Shown: piece after piece, positions 42,447 to 53,195 of the stretch | Layout: every line of letters begins with the position of its first letter | Position numbering within the stretch: position 1 is the stretch's first letter | DNA from: Candidatus Omnitrophota bacterium | GTDB taxonomy: Bacteria > Omnitrophota > Gorgyraeia > Zapsychrales > JBDRMG01 | Direction of reading: 5' to 3' | Assembly (NCBI GenBank): GCA_043812495.1 | Contig: JBDRMG010000066.1 | Coordinates: 1-53,986, forward strand | Length of the DNA stretch: 53,986 bases | Made by a program: the position numbers and the translations under genes | The notes under the pieces: model-generated | What the model saw: the letters and a program-made list of their open reading frames with translations, nothing else | Database searches by the model: none | What the model was told of the DNA's origin: nothing

Positions 42447-45400
42447 TTATATTAAAGGGCAATCTTCAGGACAATTCGTATAATTTTCTCCCCATTTAGG
42501 TTCGCAGATTCCGTTCGGATTGGGACATGTCGGGCAAGAACCGCAATCGCCCGGACAAGTACTGCATGTTTCGCCGTAATCACAAACGTGATTACCGCAG
42601 CACAATCCGCAATCACCCGAACACGTGCTGCAGTTTTCAGATCCGTTACACTGTCCATCTCCGCAATAAGGACACACACCGCAATCCGCAGAACAATTAC
42701 TGCAGGTATCCAAACCATTACAAGTACCGTCGCCGCACACAGGGGGACAATCCAAAGTGCATGTATAGGTTTCTGATTCATCGCATTGGCCGTCACCGCA
42801 CACAATAGGGCATTGACCGCAATCAATTTCACATGTGCCGCAGGACTCAAAAGACTCCTGGCAGATATTGTCACCGCAGAACTGCTCAGGATGATGAACC
42901 CAGTTATTGCGTACAAGCGCGTATTCTTTCGTAAAGCCATCAGAAAGTCCGTAAAAATGTCCGGGCGGCTGTAAATTAGGATTATTCAGGTAATCCGCAT
43001 CATAGACATGAACAGGCTGGTCATACAAAGCCAGCAATTCTTTTGGCGTGCCGGGGTTGGCGTAAGAAAATCCAGTTTCTCGGCAACCCATGGGATCGTT
43101 TAGCCAAGGACTCGGGTCATCCGTAGTATCAACAAAACGTATTTTCACATCTTCGTTATACTGCGCTTGATCGCAGGCACGGGTATTCATGGTTTTTGCA
43201 ACCGGACCCACGGAAGGAAACTCATTGGATAATTGGATAAGGGAGCCGGTGACGACCGCTTCATATTCTACCCAACTATTCTGAGCGGGCGGGCTGGATT
43301 GATCTCCGGGATTCGCAAAGTATTTCCATAGCTCCAAATGATCCAGCTCATCGACGGAAACATAGTTCCCGACTAAAGATATATTATACTGAATCTCATT
43401 TTTGCCGTCTCCATCGGTATCTGATCCGCCTGTAACCGGATGGGCCATTTTCAATTCTGGTTCTTGAGGGCCATCCCACTTGTAATACCAGTACCAATTC
43501 TTACCGTTGACTATATCGTAATTCTTGTCGAGCCCGCGTCCTTCCGGCAAGCCGTCCCATTCCGGGTTCCAAACCGATGTAAATTCATCTTCTCCATAAG
43601 GGTACGAATAATGAAATTGCGGCATCGGGAGATGTTCGGGGAAATCATAATTTTCCGAGAGAAGGTTAATGCGGTTAGATACAAAAGCAGCAGAAGGCTG
43701 TTTGTTATCCGGGGCCGTGTTGTACTTGCCTATCATCGAGAAATCGCCTTGCACATAATACGTAAGTCCGTTCTCCGGCAGACTCTCCGCATTTATAACA
43801 GCCAGGCCAACAGGATACAGTTGAGGTCCGTCAGCCTGATAATCCCAGGCTGCATTCCACTCGTACCCTTTATTGCTCATAACAATCGTGCCGTCCAAGG
43901 GGAGGTAATTTTTTTCCGGGTTTTGGATCTGACATTCTTCCAACCCTTGAATATTTACAACAATTGCTCGATTAATGAGTCCGGTCTTATGATTCATAAA
44001 TCTTTTGAGTTGAACCAAGGGCTCGCTGGTGCAACCTTCATCATCCCATGTATAATTGTTTTCAGAATTCAGAAGAATAATGGTAGGTTCGTTTTGAGCA
44101 TTTATGGAAAAATGTACATCATCTGTATCCTTGTCAGGATAAAAAATCATGCTTCCTCCGGAAACCTGAGCCTCGGACATCATTTGTTCAACAGGAACCG
44201 TAGGCAAGGTGACTTGGCTGACTTCAGAGGATTGGTCAAGAAGGACATCATCCAATCCTACGCTTTCCAGGAAGCTTTGCCATGCATTCTGTTGTGAGTC
44301 GGCAAAAAGAACATTGATCTGGTCTGAGCGGTTAAAATAAGCGTTTACCGGATAAGTATCGGCATCCGGCAAAATCGAAGGAATATAATAACCGCTGGCC
44401 TCACCGGCTTTTTGGATATAGACATTGTCTTGGTAGTAATTTGCATTATTAGCCACGGGATCGGTCATCGCGCAGTTCACGTCCGGGTTACAATTATAGT
44501 TCTGCTCAAGATAGACATATTGTTTTGGATTGTCCTGGTCGGTCCACCAGTTGACCCCATGGGCGCCATCAAGTCCATAACCCGATAAGTAAATATTAAG
44601 GGAAGTTGTGTCTCCCCAAGGCAATATCGGGTTTTGGTTCGCATCACTTTGATTCCACGGAACGACGGATGTGCAGCCGGCATCTTTACAAGCCAGAAGG
44701 CCATAGCGCATACCGGCGATATGGCCGTGATTATGATTCAGATTATTATACAGCGCACCAAAAGGAGTGGTGTTCTCATTGGCAGAAACGAAAGGAGAGA
44801 TCTTTGTTTTGGCCCAGTCTTGGACCGCATCGTCAGGGTATAAAAGCGGATTAAAGGCCCAGTGAAAATTACCGGCCGTTGAAATTTCCGTCGCGTTAAG
44901 GATTTTTGTGCCGGCATTAAAGAAAATATCCCCGTTGGAATGGATTTTGCCCTGCTGGGCATCAATGGACTGCCAGCCGATGGAGACATTACCGGAATAA
45001 AAATTTGCGTAATCATAGAGCGAGATGCCGTTGATTTTATGCAAAAAAAGCCGTTCGTGCCCTTTATTCGCGCCCTTGACAAGAACATAATAATCACTGT
45101 CCATCCGGTAGATTTTCACCTCAAGAAGAGGATCGCCGTCGTTATCCTTCACGACATAGATTTTACTTCCGTCGCCAAACGACTCGTCATTATCGATAAT
45201 AATTTCGGCATCTGAGGCTAACAAGCTAGGGATAGGTCCCTGGTTGGCTTCTTCCCGGTCAATCAGTTCATTCAGATCATCGGGAACATGGGTAAAAAAA
45301 GGAGATTCGCCGATGCTATGGCCCATAATTTCTGCGAAGGCATAGGACGCGCCTTTGTCGGCATTGTATTTGGCCTGAAGATAATCGTAGAGGATTTGAA

Positions 45401-45533
45401 TCTGGTGGCTGTTATTGATAGATTGCATGAAAATAATAGCGCTGTAAGCCACCAGAAGAATCAGGGCATAAAAGACCACCAGGCCCCAGAGAAATTGCCC
45501 TTTTTTGGATAACACCAGTTTCTTAAACTCCAT
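42447..45533 (-). CDS. Large PilX-like (pilin-type N-terminus) extracellular protein with C-terminal CG[DN]xxC Cys-rich repeats, cassette 1
   Basis: KKG followed by a hydrophobic helix, QAKYNADKGA..A..EI, G.IHSNG.I.F; about six CG[DN]..C...E.C..C..DC repeats. Confidence 0.7.
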   Translation of the reverse strand: MEFKKLVLSKKGQFLWGLVVFYALILLVAYSAIIFMQSINNSHQIQILYDYLQAKYNADKGASYAFAEIMGHSIGESPFFTHVPDDLNELIDREEANQGPIPSLLASDAEIIIDNDESFGDGSKIYVVKDNDGDPLLEVKIYRMDSDYYVLVKGANKGHERLFLHKINGISLYDYANFYSGNVSIGWQSIDAQQGKIHSNGDIFFNAGTKILNATEISTAGNFHWAFNPLLYPDDAVQDWAKTKISPFVSANENTTPFGALYNNLNHNHGHIAGMRYGLLACKDAGCTSVVPWNQSDANQNPILPWGDTTSLNIYLSGYGLDGAHGVNWWTDQDNPKQYVYLEQNYNCNPDVNCAMTDPVANNANYYQDNVYIQKAGEASGYYIPSILPDADTYPVNAYFNRSDQINVLFADSQQNAWQSFLESVGLDDVLLDQSSEVSQVTLPTVPVEQMMSEAQVSGGSMIFYPDKDTDDVHFSINAQNEPTIILLNSENNYTWDDEGCTSEPLVQLKRFMNHKTGLINRAIVVNIQGLEECQIQNPEKNYLPLDGTIVMSNKGYEWNAAWDYQADGPQLYPVGLAVINAESLPENGLTYYVQGDFSMIGKYNTAPDNKQPSAAFVSNRINLLSENYDFPEHLPMPQFHYSYPYGEDEFTSVWNPEWDGLPEGRGLDKNYDIVNGKNWYWYYKWDGPQEPELKMAHPVTGGSDTDGDGKNEIQYNISLVGNYVSVDELDHLELWKYFANPGDQSSPPAQNSWVEYEAVVTGSLIQLSNEFPSVGPVAKTMNTRACDQAQYNEDVKIRFVDTTDDPSPWLNDPMGCRETGFSYANPGTPKELLALYDQPVHVYDADYLNNPNLQPPGHFYGLSDGFTKEYALVRNNWVHHPEQFCGDNICQESFESCGTCEIDCGQCPIVCGDGQCDESETYTCTLDCPPVCGDGTCNGLDTCSNCSADCGVCPYCGDGQCNGSENCSTCSGDCGLCCGNHVCDYGETCSTCPGDCGSCPTCPNPNGICEPKWGENYTNCPEDCPLI

Positions 45534-45568: not shown

Positions 45569-46318
45569 TTACGATGCATCGTCGCTAGGTTCAAGGTCAG
45601 TGGCGGCTTCCATTTCTTCATTTGAACACCACCCGGGACAATCTTCAGGGCATGTACATTTCGTTTCGCCCTGCTCATCAAAATCATTGCAAACGTTATT
45701 ACCGCATAAAGGAAGACACGTCGGCCTTGGTCCGCTGGCGTACAAATAGTCGAGAAGATAATTAACATCTTCGATATCTACAGACCCGGACGCATCCACA
45801 TCGGCAACTTCGTAATACGTGGGCGCAGTTCCATCGGCAAATATGTATTGCAAAAGAAATGTGCAATCTGCCGTATCCACAAAAGTATCATTGTTGGCAT
45901 CACCGCAACCGGGGATAAGAGGGCAGTCTAGCAAACAATTGTCAAAGCTCTCCGTGATATCGCAATGACCATCCCCGCAGACAGGCAGGGTTTGCACATT
46001 CTTCGGATTCCTTAAATAAACCGTTGTCTCAAGAAAAGAGTCTGTAGTGGCGGGCAGATTCCCGGTATTATTGTTCTGGGTCGTCAACCTCATTCTTACT
46101 TTATTATTGTCTGAAAAGAATTCGGCATTCTGGATTCCATAAGCCAAGATTTGCTGATCGTATACAGCAAAATCATCGCTCAGTTGTTCTATGATTGGTT
46201 CTGATAAGGGAAGAAATTCGCTCCCTCCTTGCTGGGCATTAATATTATTAACTTTCCCGGTCAGAAATGCAACAAAGAATAAGCAACTGAAAAGAATAAT
46301 ATATTTTTCCTTACACAT
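45569..46318 (-). CDS. Exported protein with a PilW C-terminal-like segment, Cys-rich repeats and a type I dockerin, cassette 1
   Basis: Signal peptide; QILAYGIQNAEF...LETTVYLRN; duplicated Ca-binding loops GDANNDTFVDTADC and ADVDASGSVDIEDV; SD aggagg before ATG 46318. Confidence 0.7.
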   Translation of the reverse strand: MCKEKYIILFSCLFFVAFLTGKVNNINAQQGGSEFLPLSEPIIEQLSDDFAVYDQQILAYGIQNAEFFSDNNKVRMRLTTQNNNTGNLPATTDSFLETTVYLRNPKNVQTLPVCGDGHCDITESFDNCLLDCPLIPGCGDANNDTFVDTADCTFLLQYIFADGTAPTYYEVADVDASGSVDIEDVNYLLDYLYASGPRPTCLPLCGNNVCNDFDEQGETKCTCPEDCPGWCSNEEMEAATDLEPSDDAS

Positions 46319-46455
46319 GAAATCCTCCTTCACGACAAACACCTCTCATTATTTAGAATGCTTCTTAAGTGAAGCTCTACAGCCTAACGGCTGTAGCATC
46401 TTCTTTATAGCTCCGACGCTCCTTCGGAGGTCGGGGTAAAATGTTCATTCGATTG

Positions 46456-47364
46456 TTAGCTTCCACCGCCTGACGATTCGCCGCAAGAATGATCACAGGG
46501 GGATGTGCAATCTTGAGGGCAGGGGCTGCAGGCGCAGTCTTCATTGCAAATTTCGTCTCCGCAGCAAGGGCTGCAATCGTCACAGGAGCCGCAGATCTCG
46601 TTGCCGTTACAGGACCCGTCCCCGCAATACGCCAACTCTTCGCAAGGTCCGCAATCGCCCGTGCACGTCAAGCACGTTTCTCCAAAATTACAAACCCCAT
46701 CCCCGCAGCATGTGCCGCAGTCTTGAAGGCATGTCTGACAATTTTCACCCATAGCGGTGTCGCAAAGATTTCCGTCCGGATCGCTTCCTTGCGTGGCTCC
46801 GCAACAATCTCTCCCGCAAGGGGGGCAATCAAGCGTGCAATTGTTGCAATCTTCCCCCATGTCAGGGCCGCTGATGCCGTCTTCGCATGTTCCGTTGCCG
46901 CATGTATTCACGCTTTCGATGCTATCCGGGCAAACCGTTCGTCGAATAAGCTGATGATTTTCTGAATTCACCAGAAACTCATAATGGCACGCTTCATAGC
47001 CGGTGTCACCGACATAAGCGCCGTAGCGGATGTTTCCGCTCTCGGTATATTGATTTCCCTCTTCATCGACAATAGGGGATTTGAATGTAAGAACGGTTCC
47101 GTCACATTCATATAATATATTGCTATCAGTACTTCCGCACCATGTATACTTGGCGCCCCCTTTATACGTCAGTTCAATCTCCCGGACCATGCGTTCTGTG
47201 ACATTGACGAGTTGCGAATTTTTCTCAGCTCTTTTGCTTGAGATCAAAGACGCCACAATGCCTTTTTGGGCCACAACACCGATCGCTGTCCCGATGACGA
47301 CAACCAATCCTGCGACAATCAGCGTTTCGGCTAGGGTAAAAGATTTGTTTTTGAGAAGTTTCAT
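46456..47364 (-). CDS. Prepilin N-terminal methylation protein (PilW/PulJ-like N-half) with Cys-rich repeats, cassette 1
   Basis: KSF-TLAE-TLIV class III signal, ERMVREI, QLIRR, then about five CG[DN]G repeats; SD ggagg. Confidence 0.75.
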   Translation of the reverse strand: MKLLKNKSFTLAETLIVAGLVVVIGTAIGVVAQKGIVASLISSKRAEKNSQLVNVTERMVREIELTYKGGAKYTWCGSTDSNILYECDGTVLTFKSPIVDEEGNQYTESGNIRYGAYVGDTGYEACHYEFLVNSENHQLIRRTVCPDSIESVNTCGNGTCEDGISGPDMGEDCNNCTLDCPPCGRDCCGATQGSDPDGNLCDTAMGENCQTCLQDCGTCCGDGVCNFGETCLTCTGDCGPCEELAYCGDGSCNGNEICGSCDDCSPCCGDEICNEDCACSPCPQDCTSPCDHSCGESSGGGS

Positions 47365-47618: not shown

Positions 47619-47948
47619 TCTTTGTTGGCGGCCAGGCTGCCTCGGCCATTGATCATTGATCAATGCGCCGGGCCCTATAGCTTTGTGCTCTACTCCGCTC
47701 AAAAATCCTTCGACTAGCTCAGGACATCTTGAAGGACGCTGAGCAAAACCGAAGTACTTTCGCGTTTGAGCTTCCCTCGGGACCGAGTCTCCTTGAGGAA
47801 GGGTCCTCGGGACGAGGTCGTAGAGCCCTGCGTAGCTCACATACGAAAGTATTTGCCTCGCACCGAGTGCAATGTGATTTGTGCTCGGCACGAGGTGAGC
47901 GAAGCAGGGTCCCATCCTTACGAACGGTTTACCTTTTTCAACGAAAGA
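47619..47948 (-). ncRNA. c-di-GMP-I (GEMM-I) riboswitch aptamer interrupted by a 222-nt palindromic insert (47689-47910)
   Basis: Minus strand gttgaaaaaggtaaaccgttcgtaaggatggg[insert]gcacaaagctatagggccc...ggcagcctggccgccaac; colinear with 53111-53195. Confidence 0.8.
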
Positions 47949-48354: not shown

Positions 48355-51096
48355 CTAATAAAGAATTATTTGGGTTTCGTTGCCGCAGCTCGCTGTGCTT
48401 GTTCCGCAATCTTCACAATTGCAAGGGTCCTCTTCCGCGTTACAGAAACCATCCCCGCAATATTCCGCGATGCACTGGTCCGGACAATTTGTCCAGTTGA
48501 ACGGCGCATAAGGGATTTCCTGAACGAGACCGACCGTGAAAAATCCGGCTAATTCATCCGGCGGAACATAATTGGCTACATTGGCATAGTCCGCATCATA
48601 GGTTATTTCGGGTCTTTTGCCGGTTATGAGAAAGTCCGAAGGAGGATCATCCGTGCGCGTTCGTTTAGTGTTATTGGAAAACCACGAGTCACTTGTATTC
48701 CAGGGAGTGTCGCAGCCGGTACCATCTCCGTTAAGGATAAAACAGCGGATGGGATTCTCGTATCTTTGCGCGTCGAGTTCATTGTTTCGCTGGTCGCGGT
48801 TGTTTTCCTCCACATCGACATGCCCCACCGGCTGAAATGTTTCTGTATCAAGTTGAATCATCGAGCCGGAAATAAACGCCTGTTTTTGAATCCAGGTTTG
48901 ATTATAAGACGGCTGAAGGACCGGTGTTTCAAAATAGCCCCATCGCTCCAGAAAATCAGGTTCAACAGCGTAATGACCGGCCAGAGAAATATTGTAACGG
49001 ACATCATCAGAAACCGCGTGGGCCATTTTCATTGCACGAGGATTAACTGTTCCGCTTTTAGGCCAATTCGCCGGATCGTCATCAGCAAATGTATAATAAT
49101 AATCTAATACGTCAAAGCCAGGAGATAGGCCAAAATCCGAGCGGAACCCAGTTCCCGCAGGCAGACCGGCCCATGCGCCTGCTCCTTCATAGGGATAATC
49201 GAGATGATGTTGGGGCATGGGAAGGCTTTTAGGGAAATCAAAATCTTCCGAAACAAGATTCACTTTATTGGAAACAATGGCCGCTGACGGCTGTTTGTCC
49301 TCCGGAATCACGGGGTCATTATAATCTCCCACAATCGTGAAATCTCCTTGGATAAAATAGGATAGGCCCCCTTCCGGAAGCTGCTTGGCATTTTCGACGG
49401 TTAAACCAAGAGGGACGTCCATGAGATCGGGTAAATCCCCCGGGTACGGACTGTCAAAAACAGGAGGATCATTATTCACCAGCATGATAATATTGCTTTC
49501 GGGAACCCATGGCCCAATACCCCCGTTCAGCGCGTAATACTCTTCGCATGCTATCAAAACGCCCATATCAAGGACAAGAGTTTTATTCACAACGCCGTAT
49601 TTATTATTAATAAAAACTTCATCCCGAAAAATTTCTTTTTTACCGTCATTAGTCGTGCATCTAATACTATTAATGGGCGGGGAATATGATCTTCCGTTAA
49701 GTTTAATCTCTTGCACGGCCCCCTGATCACCCGCCTTAATCAATAGACCGTTTTCCTCGCTTTTCTGCATGATTTGAAGAATATTAATGTCCGGAACCGT
49801 AAATTTATGGCCGCCTGAATTCCGGTCTTTCAGGACATCGTCTAATTCCACACTAGTGAGAAAATTATTCCAAGCCGTGCTTTGGGCATCTGAATCCGTC
49901 AGATTCAAACTTGCGGGATTGTCGTGGTCGCCGAGATAGATTCTTTTTTCATAGGAGGGCGCGCCGGGAAGACGGCTGGGAATATACTTCCCCAGTATGT
50001 TCACATTCTTTTCATAATAAGCACCGTTATACCCAACGGGATCATCGTTAGCGCAGTTTCCAATGATTTTACACATTTTGGGATCTTGCTCCAGATAAGC
50101 GTATTGATAGGCACTGCTGTTCGCATGCCAGTTGACCGAACTCCAGCCGCTGTCTGCCACAAATTTTTCCCGATCTCCCCACGGCCAGATGGGCTGCTGA
50201 TTGGAATCTGTCGGGTTCCACTCCTCAATAACACCACAACTGGCATTATTGCAGGCCAAAAGGCCTCTTCTTTCACCCGCGAAATGACCGTCCATTTTGT
50301 TGATATAGTTGCCTCCACCAAGGCCGTCATTGGGATAAATATAAGGTTCCCGTCTGGATGGATATAGAGTGTTTTCGCCGCCTTCGCCCGGATAAACTAA
50401 AGGAGAGTATTCCCAGTAGAATTTCCCGGCGGTCGAAAGCTCCGAAACATCCGTGATCGTAACGCTTTCATTGAATTTGATATTGCCGTTCGCGTGAATG
50501 CCTCCGCCGTTAGCGTTAATCGTCTGCCACCCGAAGGCCGCGTCATCACTATAAAAGGCGGCAAAATTGTACATCGAGATACCCTCTATTTTACCGAAAA
50601 ATAATCGGATCGGATCACTCGCCACTGTCTTGATCAGCGCATAATAGTCTTTACTTTTTTGATAGACTTTGGCGTAAGCGATCACGTCGCTTGTCGCGCC
50701 AGCATCCTCGCGCAGCGCGTAGACATAATTTTCATTACCATTGTCGTCCAGTACTCCTTCGTCGAGAATGGCCGCGCCGGGCAAAAGATCGCTATCGGGA
50801 ATAGCGTCCGCAGGTTTAGCCAACAGCCGCCCGCCCGTAAATAAATCAAGCGTATGGGTCGTGAAAATATTATCGCTGTAAGAATTCCGGGTGATCTCAA
50901 GGAAAACATATTCCAGCGTCTTCACGGCCGCATATTGCGCCTTAATTTTATTATAGATTTTTCTGATATTGCGGTTATTCGCGCCGGATTGAATAAAAAT
51001 AATAATTCCATAGGCCCCCAGCAGGAAAACCAGAGGGAGAACAATCATGAAGGATATGGTGTAGCCTTTTTTCTCAAAATATTTTCGCCAGAACAT
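48355..51096 (-). CDS. Large PilX-like extracellular protein, cassette 2 (paralog of 42447..45533)
   Basis: KKGYTISF hydrophobic helix, KAQYAA; shares GIS.Y..A.FYS, GWQ.I.A, GLLAC..A.C, KQPSAA, LPMPQ.H..YPY and KMAH with the paralog; ATG 51096 preferred. Confidence 0.7.
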   Translation of the reverse strand: MFWRKYFEKKGYTISFMIVLPLVFLLGAYGIIIFIQSGANNRNIRKIYNKIKAQYAAVKTLEYVFLEITRNSYSDNIFTTHTLDLFTGGRLLAKPADAIPDSDLLPGAAILDEGVLDDNGNENYVYALREDAGATSDVIAYAKVYQKSKDYYALIKTVASDPIRLFFGKIEGISMYNFAAFYSDDAAFGWQTINANGGGIHANGNIKFNESVTITDVSELSTAGKFYWEYSPLVYPGEGGENTLYPSRREPYIYPNDGLGGGNYINKMDGHFAGERRGLLACNNASCGVIEEWNPTDSNQQPIWPWGDREKFVADSGWSSVNWHANSSAYQYAYLEQDPKMCKIIGNCANDDPVGYNGAYYEKNVNILGKYIPSRLPGAPSYEKRIYLGDHDNPASLNLTDSDAQSTAWNNFLTSVELDDVLKDRNSGGHKFTVPDINILQIMQKSEENGLLIKAGDQGAVQEIKLNGRSYSPPINSIRCTTNDGKKEIFRDEVFINNKYGVVNKTLVLDMGVLIACEEYYALNGGIGPWVPESNIIMLVNNDPPVFDSPYPGDLPDLMDVPLGLTVENAKQLPEGGLSYFIQGDFTIVGDYNDPVIPEDKQPSAAIVSNKVNLVSEDFDFPKSLPMPQHHLDYPYEGAGAWAGLPAGTGFRSDFGLSPGFDVLDYYYTFADDDPANWPKSGTVNPRAMKMAHAVSDDVRYNISLAGHYAVEPDFLERWGYFETPVLQPSYNQTWIQKQAFISGSMIQLDTETFQPVGHVDVEENNRDQRNNELDAQRYENPIRCFILNGDGTGCDTPWNTSDSWFSNNTKRTRTDDPPSDFLITGKRPEITYDADYANVANYVPPDELAGFFTVGLVQEIPYAPFNWTNCPDQCIAEYCGDGFCNAEEDPCNCEDCGTSTASCGNETQIILY

Positions 51097-51119
51097 AGTT
51101 TTTGTCCCTTTTTCCTTTC

Positions 51120-51719
51120 TTATTCTAAACCGCATGTCGGCGCGCCCAGCTCTCCGGATATATAATCGATGATACGAACGGCGTCGTCAATATCGATTGA
51201 GTCGATGCCGTCCGCATTGCCGTAAGTCAGATCCGGGGCCGGGCCTCCGCGGAAGATATAGTCAAGAAGATAATTGACATCATCGATATCAATCCCTCCG
51301 TCTTCATTGCAGTCTCCGCATTTTTGATTGCCTGCGCATTCTTCGGGGCAATTCAAGGCGTTTTCTCCCACATCGCAATCGCCATCCCCATTACAAGCAT
51401 TCTGGGAGTCGAAGGTATCTTTGCTATTGCGCGGAATAGCCTCTGTCTTAAGATGGATGTCCGCGTCTTTCACAAGACTGCCGGGCGTATCCAAGGCATG
51501 GACCTCGATGGAAAATCGATCGCTGTCTTCCGGCTGGACAAATTCGATATTATCGATGCCGTCGGCTATGACTTTGTTGAATACGGCCTCTTGAGAGTAG
51601 GCCGCATGCTCCGCGCCGGGAAAACAAAATATCACGAAAAATATCCCAGCTACAAGAAGCAGAAGAAACACCTCCCGTGCGCGGTCAAGCCCTTTTTGCG
51701 CGTTATTCTTGTATTGCAT
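51120..51719 (-). CDS. Exported protein with a PilW C-terminal-like segment, Cys repeat and type I dockerin, cassette 2
   Basis: KVIADGIDNIEF...LKTEAIPRN; CGDCNEDGGIDIDDVNYLLDYIF and GNADGIDSIDIDDAV; SD aggtga before ATG 51719. Confidence 0.7.
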   Translation of the reverse strand: MQYKNNAQKGLDRAREVFLLLLVAGIFFVIFCFPGAEHAAYSQEAVFNKVIADGIDNIEFVQPEDSDRFSIEVHALDTPGSLVKDADIHLKTEAIPRNSKDTFDSQNACNGDGDCDVGENALNCPEECAGNQKCGDCNEDGGIDIDDVNYLLDYIFRGGPAPDLTYGNADGIDSIDIDDAVRIIDYISGELGAPTCGLE

Positions 51720-51781
51720 GATAATCACCTTCTTTAGTCTCATCTATTTGTATTATTAAAAAAGACCAAACAAATCTAACT

Positions 51782-53059
51782 TCATAGGCACTCCGGGTTG
51801 TGTCGGCAGTAGTGGCAATTACATGATTCATCCCAATCGCATAAGCCATCGGCATCTGAACATCTATAATTGATCGAAGATGGCGGGTAAGCCGGATTCT
51901 CATAACAAGCGCAATCACTGGTTGCTCGACAGTTTTCTTTTTGTGTTAAGGGAGGACAGCTATAGGTTCCCGTATTATCACAATAGCCATCTCCTAAGCA
52001 ATTTCCTTGCGCAGCACAATAATCGCTTTTACAGGAAGGTTCAGAGGAGTTGCATTTTTCGCCCGTATCGATTTGTCCGTTTCCGCAGCAGTTATTTGGA
52101 TACGGATGAAGGTAGCAATCTGAACACAAAGAGCAATCCTCCGTGCCTTCGGGCCAGGCAGGAGGCTTGTTGCATGTGCCATCTCCGCATGAAAAACACC
52201 AAGGAGCACAGTCAATGCATCCGCAGACGACTTCACCGTTATTAGGTTGCCCGTGCACACCGTCATTGCATGTGCCGTCTCCGCAGCATGGGCTGCAATC
52301 GGCTGTGCATGCAGCGCATCCTTCGGACCAATGGCACTCGCCGTCGCCGCAATAGGGAAAATCCTCATTTTCATTGGATCCGCAGTCCGCCGTACAGTTG
52401 ACTTGACTTTCTCCGATTTGGGCATCGCAGATGCCGTTCGGGCAGCAAGGCCCGCAGTCATAAGGACATGTAAAACAACTTTCATCGTCATCGCACGTTT
52501 CATCTCGACAACAGGGGCTGCAATCGGCGCATATTCCACAGAGTCCTTCACAATCTTCGTCGGGATTAAATCCAGAATCTCCGCATTCAGCAGGAGCTTC
52601 TCCGGGCGAGCCGCAGACGGTTGCTTTGATCAGTTGTTGATTGTCATTGACAAAATACTCATAATAACAATCTTCATTTCCGATTCCTTCCTCATCATAC
52701 GCCCCGTATTTTGTTTTTCCCTCCGGCGTATAGCGGGTGCCAGCGACAGGATCATCATTGACGACGGGAACTTTGATGCTGATGGTTGAGCATCTATTAT
52801 TTCCGAATTCATCTATTTCGCAAATGGATCCCATTGGGCCGCCGCGATAACTGGCCTGGATATCGGACACAATCGGCTCGATCGCAATCGAAAGACGCGT
52901 TGATTTTGTTGCCCGTTCGGTGGAAATGGCCGAGGCGCGGATGCCTTTCTGGCTGACAATGGCAAAGCCCGTTCCCAACGTAACCAGAATAGCGATGGAC
53001 ACAAGCAATTCAGGCAGCGTGTTGGCTCTATTTTTAATCTCTTTGCGTTGATAGCTCAT
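51782..53059 (-). CDS. Prepilin N-terminal protein (PilW/PulJ-like N-half) with many Cys-rich repeats, cassette 2
   Basis: RAN-TLPE-LLV, QKGI.AS.IS..RA.K, YGAY...C.YE..VN...QLI shared with 46456..47364; SD ggag. Confidence 0.75.
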   Translation of the reverse strand: MSYQRKEIKNRANTLPELLVSIAILVTLGTGFAIVSQKGIRASAISTERATKSTRLSIAIEPIVSDIQASYRGGPMGSICEIDEFGNNRCSTISIKVPVVNDDPVAGTRYTPEGKTKYGAYDEEGIGNEDCYYEYFVNDNQQLIKATVCGSPGEAPAECGDSGFNPDEDCEGLCGICADCSPCCRDETCDDDESCFTCPYDCGPCCPNGICDAQIGESQVNCTADCGSNENEDFPYCGDGECHWSEGCAACTADCSPCCGDGTCNDGVHGQPNNGEVVCGCIDCAPWCFSCGDGTCNKPPAWPEGTEDCSLCSDCYLHPYPNNCCGNGQIDTGEKCNSSEPSCKSDYCAAQGNCLGDGYCDNTGTYSCPPLTQKENCRATSDCACYENPAYPPSSINYRCSDADGLCDWDESCNCHYCRHNPECL

Positions 53060-53110: not shown

Positions 53111-53195
53111 TGTTGGCAGCCAGGCTGTCCCCTTTATTTTCGAGGATCCTTGAGCTTTGTGCCCTGTCCTTACGAACAGTTTACCTTTTTCAACA
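53111..53195 (-). ncRNA. c-di-GMP-I (GEMM-I) riboswitch, intact
   Basis: Minus strand tgttgaaaaaGGTAAACtgttcGTAAggacagGGCACAAAGCtcaaggatcc...ggacAGCctggctGCCaaca: P1 tgttg/caaca, GNRA loop, G at the Vc2 G20-equivalent position. Confidence 0.88.

Follow-up and report, generated by a model that had tools for sequence, protein, structure and literature searches.

Is a single minor pilin divided between two adjacent genes in this Omnitrophota genome, and if so, how did the break arise? The window, by which we mean the whole stretch of DNA analysed, is a complete contig of 53,986 nucleotides (G000:C66). On its minus strand, downstream of an era-like gene, it carries two cassettes of three genes each. 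A first-pass annotation had read genes 1 and 2 of each cassette as an N-half and a C-half of a PilW-like pilin whose globular domain is rebuilt in trans. All of its open reading frame (ORF) positions were recovered, and every ORF lies on the minus strand.

Organization of the two cassettes

Cassette 1, all features on the minus strand:
47620–47945: c-di-GMP-I-like aptamer upstream of the cassette, interrupted by 220 nt (47689–47908)
46456–47364: gene 1, 302 aa; class III-like leader, PilW/GspJ-type N-half and Cys repeats
46930–47364: PilW/GspJ-type N-half of gene 1 (aa 1–145)
45569–46342: gene 2 ORF; likelier start at ATG 46318, giving 45569–46318
46323–46330: Shine-Dalgarno-like site AAGGAGGA ahead of the gene 2 ATG, read from the sequence
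about 46235–46318: Sec-type signal of gene 2
46007–46165: pilin C-half of gene 2, from profile alignment
45743–45904: dockerin-I domain of gene 2 (Pfam PF00404, E 3.9e-6)
42447–45533: gene 3, 1028 aa; N-terminal hydrophobic helix and C-terminal Cys repeats

Cassette 2, all features on the minus strand:
53112–53195: c-di-GMP-I riboswitch aptamer upstream of the cassette (Rfam RF01051, 54.3 bits against a gathering threshold of 35)
51782–53059: gene 1; pilin N-half (52613–53059) followed by Cys repeats, 54 Cys
51120–51743: gene 2 ORF; likelier start at ATG 51719, giving 51120–51719
about 51594–51719: Sec-type signal of gene 2
51423–51587: pilin C-half of gene 2, followed by a Cys repeat and a dockerin-like domain
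48355–51135: gene 3, a 926-aa paralog of cassette 1 gene 3 (35% identity)

The gene 1 plan consists of a class III-like leader, a long helix and a few strands leading to QLIR or QLIK, followed by Cys repeats (37 Cys in total in cassette 1). The N-halves of the two copies are 40% identical. Gene 2 begins at a start of its own behind a purine-rich ribosome site and encodes a hydrophobic leader, roughly 50 residues up to RN, a Cys repeat and a dockerin. In cassette 1, ATG 46318 is the likelier gene 2 start because AAGGAGGA precedes it, and the order of the product is signal, pilin C-half, Cys repeat, dockerin-I, Cys repeat. The dockerin-like domain of cassette 2 gene 2 matches NF041540 with E 0.0009, below the cut-off. 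The segments ending in RN were found in both cassettes, as annotated, and the separate gene 2 start with its SD-type site and hydrophobic leader was confirmed. The pattern described for gene 1 of both cassettes held for YGA, QLIR/QLIK and the switch to Cys repeats, but RMVREI occurs in cassette 1 only. The class III signal assigned to gene 1 is atypical in cassette 2, where Pfam N_methyl matches with E 0.073, below the cut-off; cassette 1 gene 1 gives no match. The compact homologs that were compared all match N_methyl (21/21), and the Glu at +5 of the class III signal is invariant in 12 of 12 N-halves.

By its position and leader, we take gene 3 to be PilX/GspK-like, a label that no database match confirms (zero Pfam and zero PDB sequence matches). 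Its family comprises proteins of 800–1030 aa, of which 10 members are 29–35% identical to the window copy. They are rich in invariant Gly, Pro, Trp and Cys and match nothing in Pfam or PDB, and we regard the family as a candidate new tip adhesin fold. A prepilin peptidase gene is present in G000, and in the surveyed loci we recognised by eye ORFs that we take to be PilB-, PilC-, PilM-, PilN-, PilO-, PilQ- and PilV-like.

The aptamer upstream of cassette 1 was assigned from its 5′ half (E 0.0026, below gathering) and from comparison with the intact copy. In relatives, c-di-GMP-I riboswitches precede split or fused cassettes (7 matches in 11 loci scanned: L013, L015, two in L016, L017, L018 and L063), and one lies before the C26 pilin locus of G000 (G000:C26:43083-43165). 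This distribution suggests that the cassettes are co-regulated with the main pilus genes. The copies in L013 and L015 contain inserts of 44–54 nt within the aptamer. The copy at L016 13293-13371 has A where other copies have G, before the P2 base; we presume that it might serve a different ligand. A promoter scan was at chance level, with 20 sites found against a mean of 19.8.

Homology of the two halves and the position of the break

For the reference alignment, 20 homologs encoded in other genomes were combined with the compact C26 paralog of G000. With hhalign, the N-halves cover template positions 10–164 (probability 99.5), and the gene 2 cores cover positions 172–222 with E 0.00094 and a probability of only 22. 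The cores are very divergent (16–22% identity to the first, with zero invariant columns), and no Pfam or NCBIfam pilin model matches gene 2. When a profile of the 9 split cores was run against 1962 ORFs, it returned three fused orthologs, two cassettes of G011 and one of G016, at E 2.7e-6, 6e-6 and 4.5e-5; the next match was at E 0.41. A second profile, of length 55, was built for the C-half from 31 single-ORF relatives, including these three fused proteins. It aligns with the two window gene 2 products over positions 1–55 and 3–55 (10.3 and 21.4 bits), scores that none of 200 shuffles equalled. It exceeds all 200 shuffles in 10 of 11 gene 2 products, three of them by partial matches of just 0.2–3.3 bits, whereas every gene 1 product scores 0 or below. 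Searched against 9846 ORFs of the same genome, a compact-PilW profile ranks cassette 1 gene 2 fourth, weakly (E 0.2), and cassette 2 gene 2 is absent among the top rows. For the gene 2 segment, what the ESM Atlas gave were leads only: PpdB (25% of cluster members), T2SSJ (13%) and ComGF.

The annotated assignment of the gene 2 segment to a PilW-type C-terminus is upheld by its alignment to positions 172–222, its retrieval of the fused orthologs and its scores above shuffles. Of a PilW/GspJ-type minor pilin, gene 1 encodes the N-terminal two-thirds and gene 2 the last four strands. The two halves are homologous to one pilin and cover it collinearly without overlap; gene 2 has a separate start and signal, and fused orthologs occupy the same locus. 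At the level of sequence comparison, we regard the natural fusion as the decisive evidence that the halves belong together. The helix and the whole sheet are carried on two ORFs in the window, which makes this a split variant of the PilW/GspJ type. A split intein was also considered and rejected: none of the six window proteins has a Hint match, and the PT-HINT domains of relatives are whole and on a single chain.

To locate the break, we used the model of the compact C26 paralog (pLDDT 80), which has the GspJ-type fold and aligns with both halves. The closest folds are TTHA1219 (Z 12.7, rmsd 3.0 over 135 aligned residues), XcpW (11.4), EpsJ (11.0) and GspJ (10.2), against Z of at most 6.3 for unrelated rows. 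The top rows of a Foldseek search are also GspJ-family proteins, none at E of 0.001 or better. Strands 143–150 and 156–162 precede the break and strands 167–174, 177–184, 190–200 and 206–216 follow it. Because the break lies between strands 156–162 and 167–174, it falls at a hairpin turn, and gene 2 therefore supplies four strands.

Modeled alone with AF2, gene 1 reaches pTM 0.53, with a helix at 11–64 and a last strand at 139–144, and neither Foldseek nor VIA-align matched the model to any pilin. Gene 1 by itself thus fails to model as a complete pilin. In place of a joined gene 1–gene 2 chain, we used the natural single-ORF relatives and a two-chain prediction. The latter passed weakly, with ipSAE 0.52 against 0.01 for the best of 3 controls, a score that gives no interface and does not display the inter-chain sheet. 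Contacts agree by at least 94% between runs and the partner pLDDT is at least 68. The mark used for this score is reached by 116 of 157 solved pairs and 2 of 215 mismatched pairs; 18 of the solved pairs and both mismatches lie at 0.60 or below, and halves of a split gene may pass through likeness. We conclude that genes 1 and 2 are very probably complementary parts of one PilW/GspJ-type minor pilin that reassemble in trans. The first-pass proposal of trans-rebuilding is supported, none of the three outcomes that it named as refuting arose, and the pair model lends it weak support.

Several observations indicate that the break is real, as had been argued against a sequencing artefact. Across 9 measured cassettes, between −11 and 137 nt separate the gene 1 stop from the gene 2 start. 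Gene 2 is out of frame with gene 1 in 8 of them; in G007 it is in frame across a TAG. The junctions are identical in contigs of public runs at a depth of about 2. Public contig X2 spans the cassette 1 stop (46343–46543) and the cassette 2 junction (51590–51803), extending just 19 nt beyond the stop in the latter case. This match counts little because the runs possibly come from the source campaign; the recurrence of the split in 11 cassettes is the stronger argument. The leader of the G007 gene 2 (L018:10242-11207) has a hydrophobic core, a second short segment and then an A-Y-A site; this gene may represent a stage between the fused and the split form. Separately, L059:158-769 (G146:C29) is a compact PilW-like gene with one TAG elsewhere and a second piece without a signal; these features suggest a pseudogene or an error in the sequence, in contrast to the gene 1–gene 2 split.

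The 11 split cassettes occur in six assemblies: two each in G000 and G001, one in G007, four in G008, and one in each of the metagenome contigs L062 and L063. This count leaves out the 13 N-only representatives found below, except P0017, which is L063. A gene 2 that keeps the strands follows 11 of the 11 gene 1 copies that have sequenced downstream DNA. At the equivalent locus, relatives annotated as Omnitrophota carry both halves in one ORF (two in G011, one in G016, two in G309 and two in G493). In G309 and G493, which belong to other orders of the class, tandem single-ORF cassettes with insert and motif lie beside the same upstream neighbour gene, and the G309 cassettes also adjoin era. Profile searches among 168 genomes of the order gave strong matches only in the 6 genomes already in the profile; matches were also obtained in 12 of 401 genomes of a phylum sample at E of 1e-12 or better, where the loci inspected were those of G309 and G493. 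A pattern scan of genome contigs gave 12 matches, none confirmed, and a metagenome scan gave 94 matches that reduced to 3 loci, one of them too short to reveal gene 2. A word-index protein search with the gene 1 N-half, among lengths 166–529, returned only the self match.

Single-gene relatives and the internal motif

An HMMER search with the N-half profile against 1.84 billion representatives retrieved 150 proteins. These fall into three groups: compact single-ORF forms, N-only forms with Cys repeats or a Hint domain at their end, and single-ORF forms that bear an insert at the split hairpin. The hairpin inserts are Cys repeats, PT-HINT domains or both. The C-half was located in 80 of the 150; 5 were added by hand, and 13 of these 85, for which no N boundary was found, were set aside, leaving 72. 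An amphipathic helix with aromatic residues that closes with A-F/Y-A or a near variant is found in 31 of 33 linkers of at least 30 aa, in none of 39 linkers shorter than 30 aa and in 2.2% of shuffled linkers, counts that come from a pattern written after the sequences had been seen and from related proteins that are not independent. The two misses are insert-free proteins with a misplaced boundary. All four held-out insert-bearing proteins score with the motif model (4/4), and the written pattern fails in one of three held-out proteins from new genomes. Five insert-free rows nested in the insert-bearing clade lack the motif along with the insert. Together, the held-out proteins and these nested compact rows soften the concern that the pattern was defined after the fact. 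In G000 itself, one paralog has the insert and motif in a single ORF (C16:102469-103395). Run against 1474 proteins of the same genome, the motif model gave weak matches at ranks 2 and 4 (E 0.063 and 9.4) that are ordinary N-terminal signal-like peptides.

Signal peptidase I cuts after small residues at −1 and −3, with no Pro at +1, and normally requires a hydrophobic transmembrane core. In the motif, −1 is Ala in 30 of 31 cases and Gly in one, −3 is Ala in 27 of 31 and −2 is Phe or Tyr in 29 of 31, although the −1 and −3 counts follow partly from the pattern that picked the sites. No Pro occurs at +1 in the site list. The motif lies 1–65 aa ahead of the C-half and, because this distance varies, is not in register with the fold. 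Its best 10-residue hydropathy is 0.87 compared with 2.92 in the gene 2 signals (ranges 0.07–1.8 and, for nine gene 2 leaders, 2.25–3.48), its longest uncharged run is 8 compared with 22, and its hydrophobic moment is 0.55. The gene 2 signals end at the same position as the motif, mostly in a similar A-x-A/S site. Judged from its residues, the internal motif fits the −3/−1 rule of signal peptidase I but is without a transmembrane h-region. Signal peptidase I is encoded by one gene per genome in 5 of 5 genomes, and no extra paralog was found in the 5 genomes searched. In S. aureus, the amphipathic leader of AgrD is cut by MroQ and not by SpsB, according to the portion of the report consulted (PMC9388083); because of this precedent, the motif could be cut by another protease or not at all.

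Whole PT-HINT domains, up to three per protein, occur in P0026, P0003, P0012, L062:1284-2396 and L086:6598-8187, placed in the hairpin insert or at the C-terminus of either chain. These domains may cleave themselves or attach covalently. No cohesin partner for the dockerins was found in the 5 genomes searched (0/5). Elsewhere in G000, a separate secreted protein with a dockerin-like domain and Cys repeats (L025:2122-3057, C16) lies behind two tandem c-di-GMP-I riboswitches, and a 469-aa protein (L026:3107-4516, C22) carries Cys repeats of this type along with a Hint-like domain. We take the leader of the latter to be Flp/TadE-like; its Cys repeats and Hint-like domain suggest that this cargo is common to several pilus types.

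In two quick trees of about 148 columns, the split rows, the N-only rows and three fused rows fall on one side of a branch with SH-aLRT 94–96. As far as such trees go, the favoured history is fission in the descendants of an ancestor that bore the insert. A single origin of the split is not rejected (p-AU 0.33), with the three fused rows inside the split clade. The tree does not fix the order of events, and the nested fused genes may be retentions or re-fusions.

A proposed route to the pilus tip and its counterparts

We propose that gene 1 would insert through its class III helix and be trimmed by prepilin peptidase, while gene 2 would be exported by Sec and released by signal peptidase I. 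The four strands of gene 2 would then dock beside the last strand of gene 1 and against helix alpha-1, completing the sheet. With the gene 3 PilX-like protein and a PilV-like subunit encoded elsewhere, the completed subunit could form the tip of a type IVa pilus, where two free C-termini would present Cys-repeat rods and dockerin domains (in relatives, Hint domains), probably as a means of attaching to cells of a host or prey. In the single-ORF relatives, the amphipathic helix would lie on the membrane's outer face and present A-F/Y-A to the peptidase; a cut there would open the hairpin loop and let elongated cargo or Cys-repeat rods extend as a free end. The first-pass annotation had suggested that the split gives two C-termini for cargo. 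A free C-terminus is indeed gained, but no second cargo site is added: in single-ORF relatives, cargo is already present at two places, within the hairpin and behind the last strand. What changes by a split or a cut is that the first cargo site becomes a free C-terminus.

We judge the chances to be evenly divided for the whole account, in which the split would hard-code a signal-peptidase-type cut predicted in single-gene relatives. Its central step, that a non-transmembrane internal signal lets signal peptidase cut a folded minor pilin in mid-sheet and that one lineage made this into two genes, is tentative, and we place it slightly below an even chance. If the chains reassemble but the motif is never cut, it might be a membrane-binding or folding element, and the split would be an ordinary fission in a permissive loop, with a signal peptide gained there. 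The amphipathic character of the motif, which is not transmembrane (hydrophobic moment as above), fits this reading, as does the AgrD case, in which, according to the text consulted, signal peptidase I leaves an amphipathic leader uncut; our literature search also found no paper on such an internal bacterial site. We nevertheless consider an uncut motif doubtful, roughly a one-in-three prospect in our estimation, for it leaves unexplained the near-invariant Ala at −1 and −3, the lack of Pro at +1, the free spacing and the gene 2 signals that end at the same position, mostly in A-x-A/S.

Three further explanations are less likely. Gene 1 could be a truncated pilin working alone and gene 2 a released adhesin with vestigial pilin strands; the divergence of the gene 2 cores would agree with this, and headless short pilins exist, as described in the consulted part of PMC10710030. 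The reading is improbable, given the strand-keeping gene 2 behind all 11 gene 1 copies with downstream sequence, the incomplete gene 1 model and a pair prediction above controls. It is more improbable still that the gene 2 N-terminus is an uncleaved anchor and its product a membrane-bound chaperone that holds gene 1 up to its assembly and then stays behind. In its favour, certain gene 2 leaders are of considerable length (42 aa in cassette 2), and their cleavage was assessed from sequence. Against it, small-x-small sites that are plausible on inspection by eye stand at the leader ends, and gene 2 bears surface-type cargo (dockerin, Cys repeats or Hint). Finally, the in-frame TAG of G007, one of 9 measured cassettes, could hint at a single polypeptide made by frameshift or read-through, with an assembly error or an internal start in the fused genes as variants. 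We give these very little credence: gaps and frames vary, every gene 2 starts independently and with a hydrophobic signal, the junctions recur unchanged in public contigs, and in the 657-aa gene of G011 the stretch checked ahead of the motif contains no in-frame start codon.

The preferred reading is therefore a real and conserved split minor pilin; its link to an ancestral internal cut, to which we assign about even odds, is the part that would surprise specialists. The protein would be a split member of the tip-initiation complex, a minor pilin that exists naturally in three states: compact, with insert and cleavage-like motif, and in two genes. The reading raises the questions of whether signal peptidase I can cut an internal amphipathic site without a transmembrane helix and how well a PilW sheet tolerates two chains under pilus load. 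If the internal cut is true, it would be a new mode of pilin maturation in which the path from proteolytic processing to gene fission is visible, and the freed end would carry rods of Cys repeats together with Hint domains that cleave themselves and might bind or bond to cells of a host. The preferred reading also points to candidate tips for host recognition in a phylum that is thought to be predatory or parasitic and in which type IVa pili are common, as stated in the consulted part of PMC10066038, and it warns that annotation misses gene 2.

Among the papers searched, with subscription journals mostly uncovered, the Geobacter major pilin was the only split type IV pilin; the same literature, supplements being outside its scope, yielded no paper on a split PilW/GspJ protein or on an internal amphipathic signal-peptidase site in pilins. 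A split minor pilin goes unmentioned in the consulted parts of PMC6668835 and of two Omnitrophota papers (PMC10066038; bioRxiv 10.64898/2026.06.07.730766). The single-chain PilW/GspJ minor pilins TTHA1219, XcpW, EpsJ and GspJ share the fold of the C26 paralog and precede a large PilX-like gene, but unlike the window proteins they have no hairpin insert. In the portion of PMC12918778 consulted, the C-terminal beta-strand of PilC/PilY1 completes the PilK sheet and holds cargo on the tip. The likeness is that of a secreted chain, itself not a pilin, completing a minor pilin sheet in trans, although PilC/PilY1 gives one strand to a PilK/PilX-family subunit and gene 2 would give four to a PilW-family subunit. 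S. sanguinis PilB and PilC, as far as described in the consulted text of PMC10191384, have adhesive domains grafted on the pilin by short linkers in a single chain; window-type cargo is also placed at an internal hairpin that is opened.

The closest counterpart is PilA-N/PilA-C of Geobacter sulfurreducens. In the consulted sections of the reports on this pair, adjacent genes encode one pilin whose C-terminal beta part is supplied in trans, and full-length relatives indicate gene fission (PMC10710030, PMC11046646, PMC5174107, PMC10191384). The window shares the adjacent N-gene and C-gene and the full-length relatives. A stable heterodimer in the filament characterises the Geobacter type; for the window proteins, the pair score predicts a heterodimer weakly. 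As described there, the Geobacter break falls in a major pilin right after alpha-1, with the whole head in trans; in the window it falls in mid-sheet, at a hairpin of a PilW/GspJ-type minor pilin. Unlike the Geobacter pair, both window chains carry cargo, and their single-ORF relatives have a cleavage-like motif.
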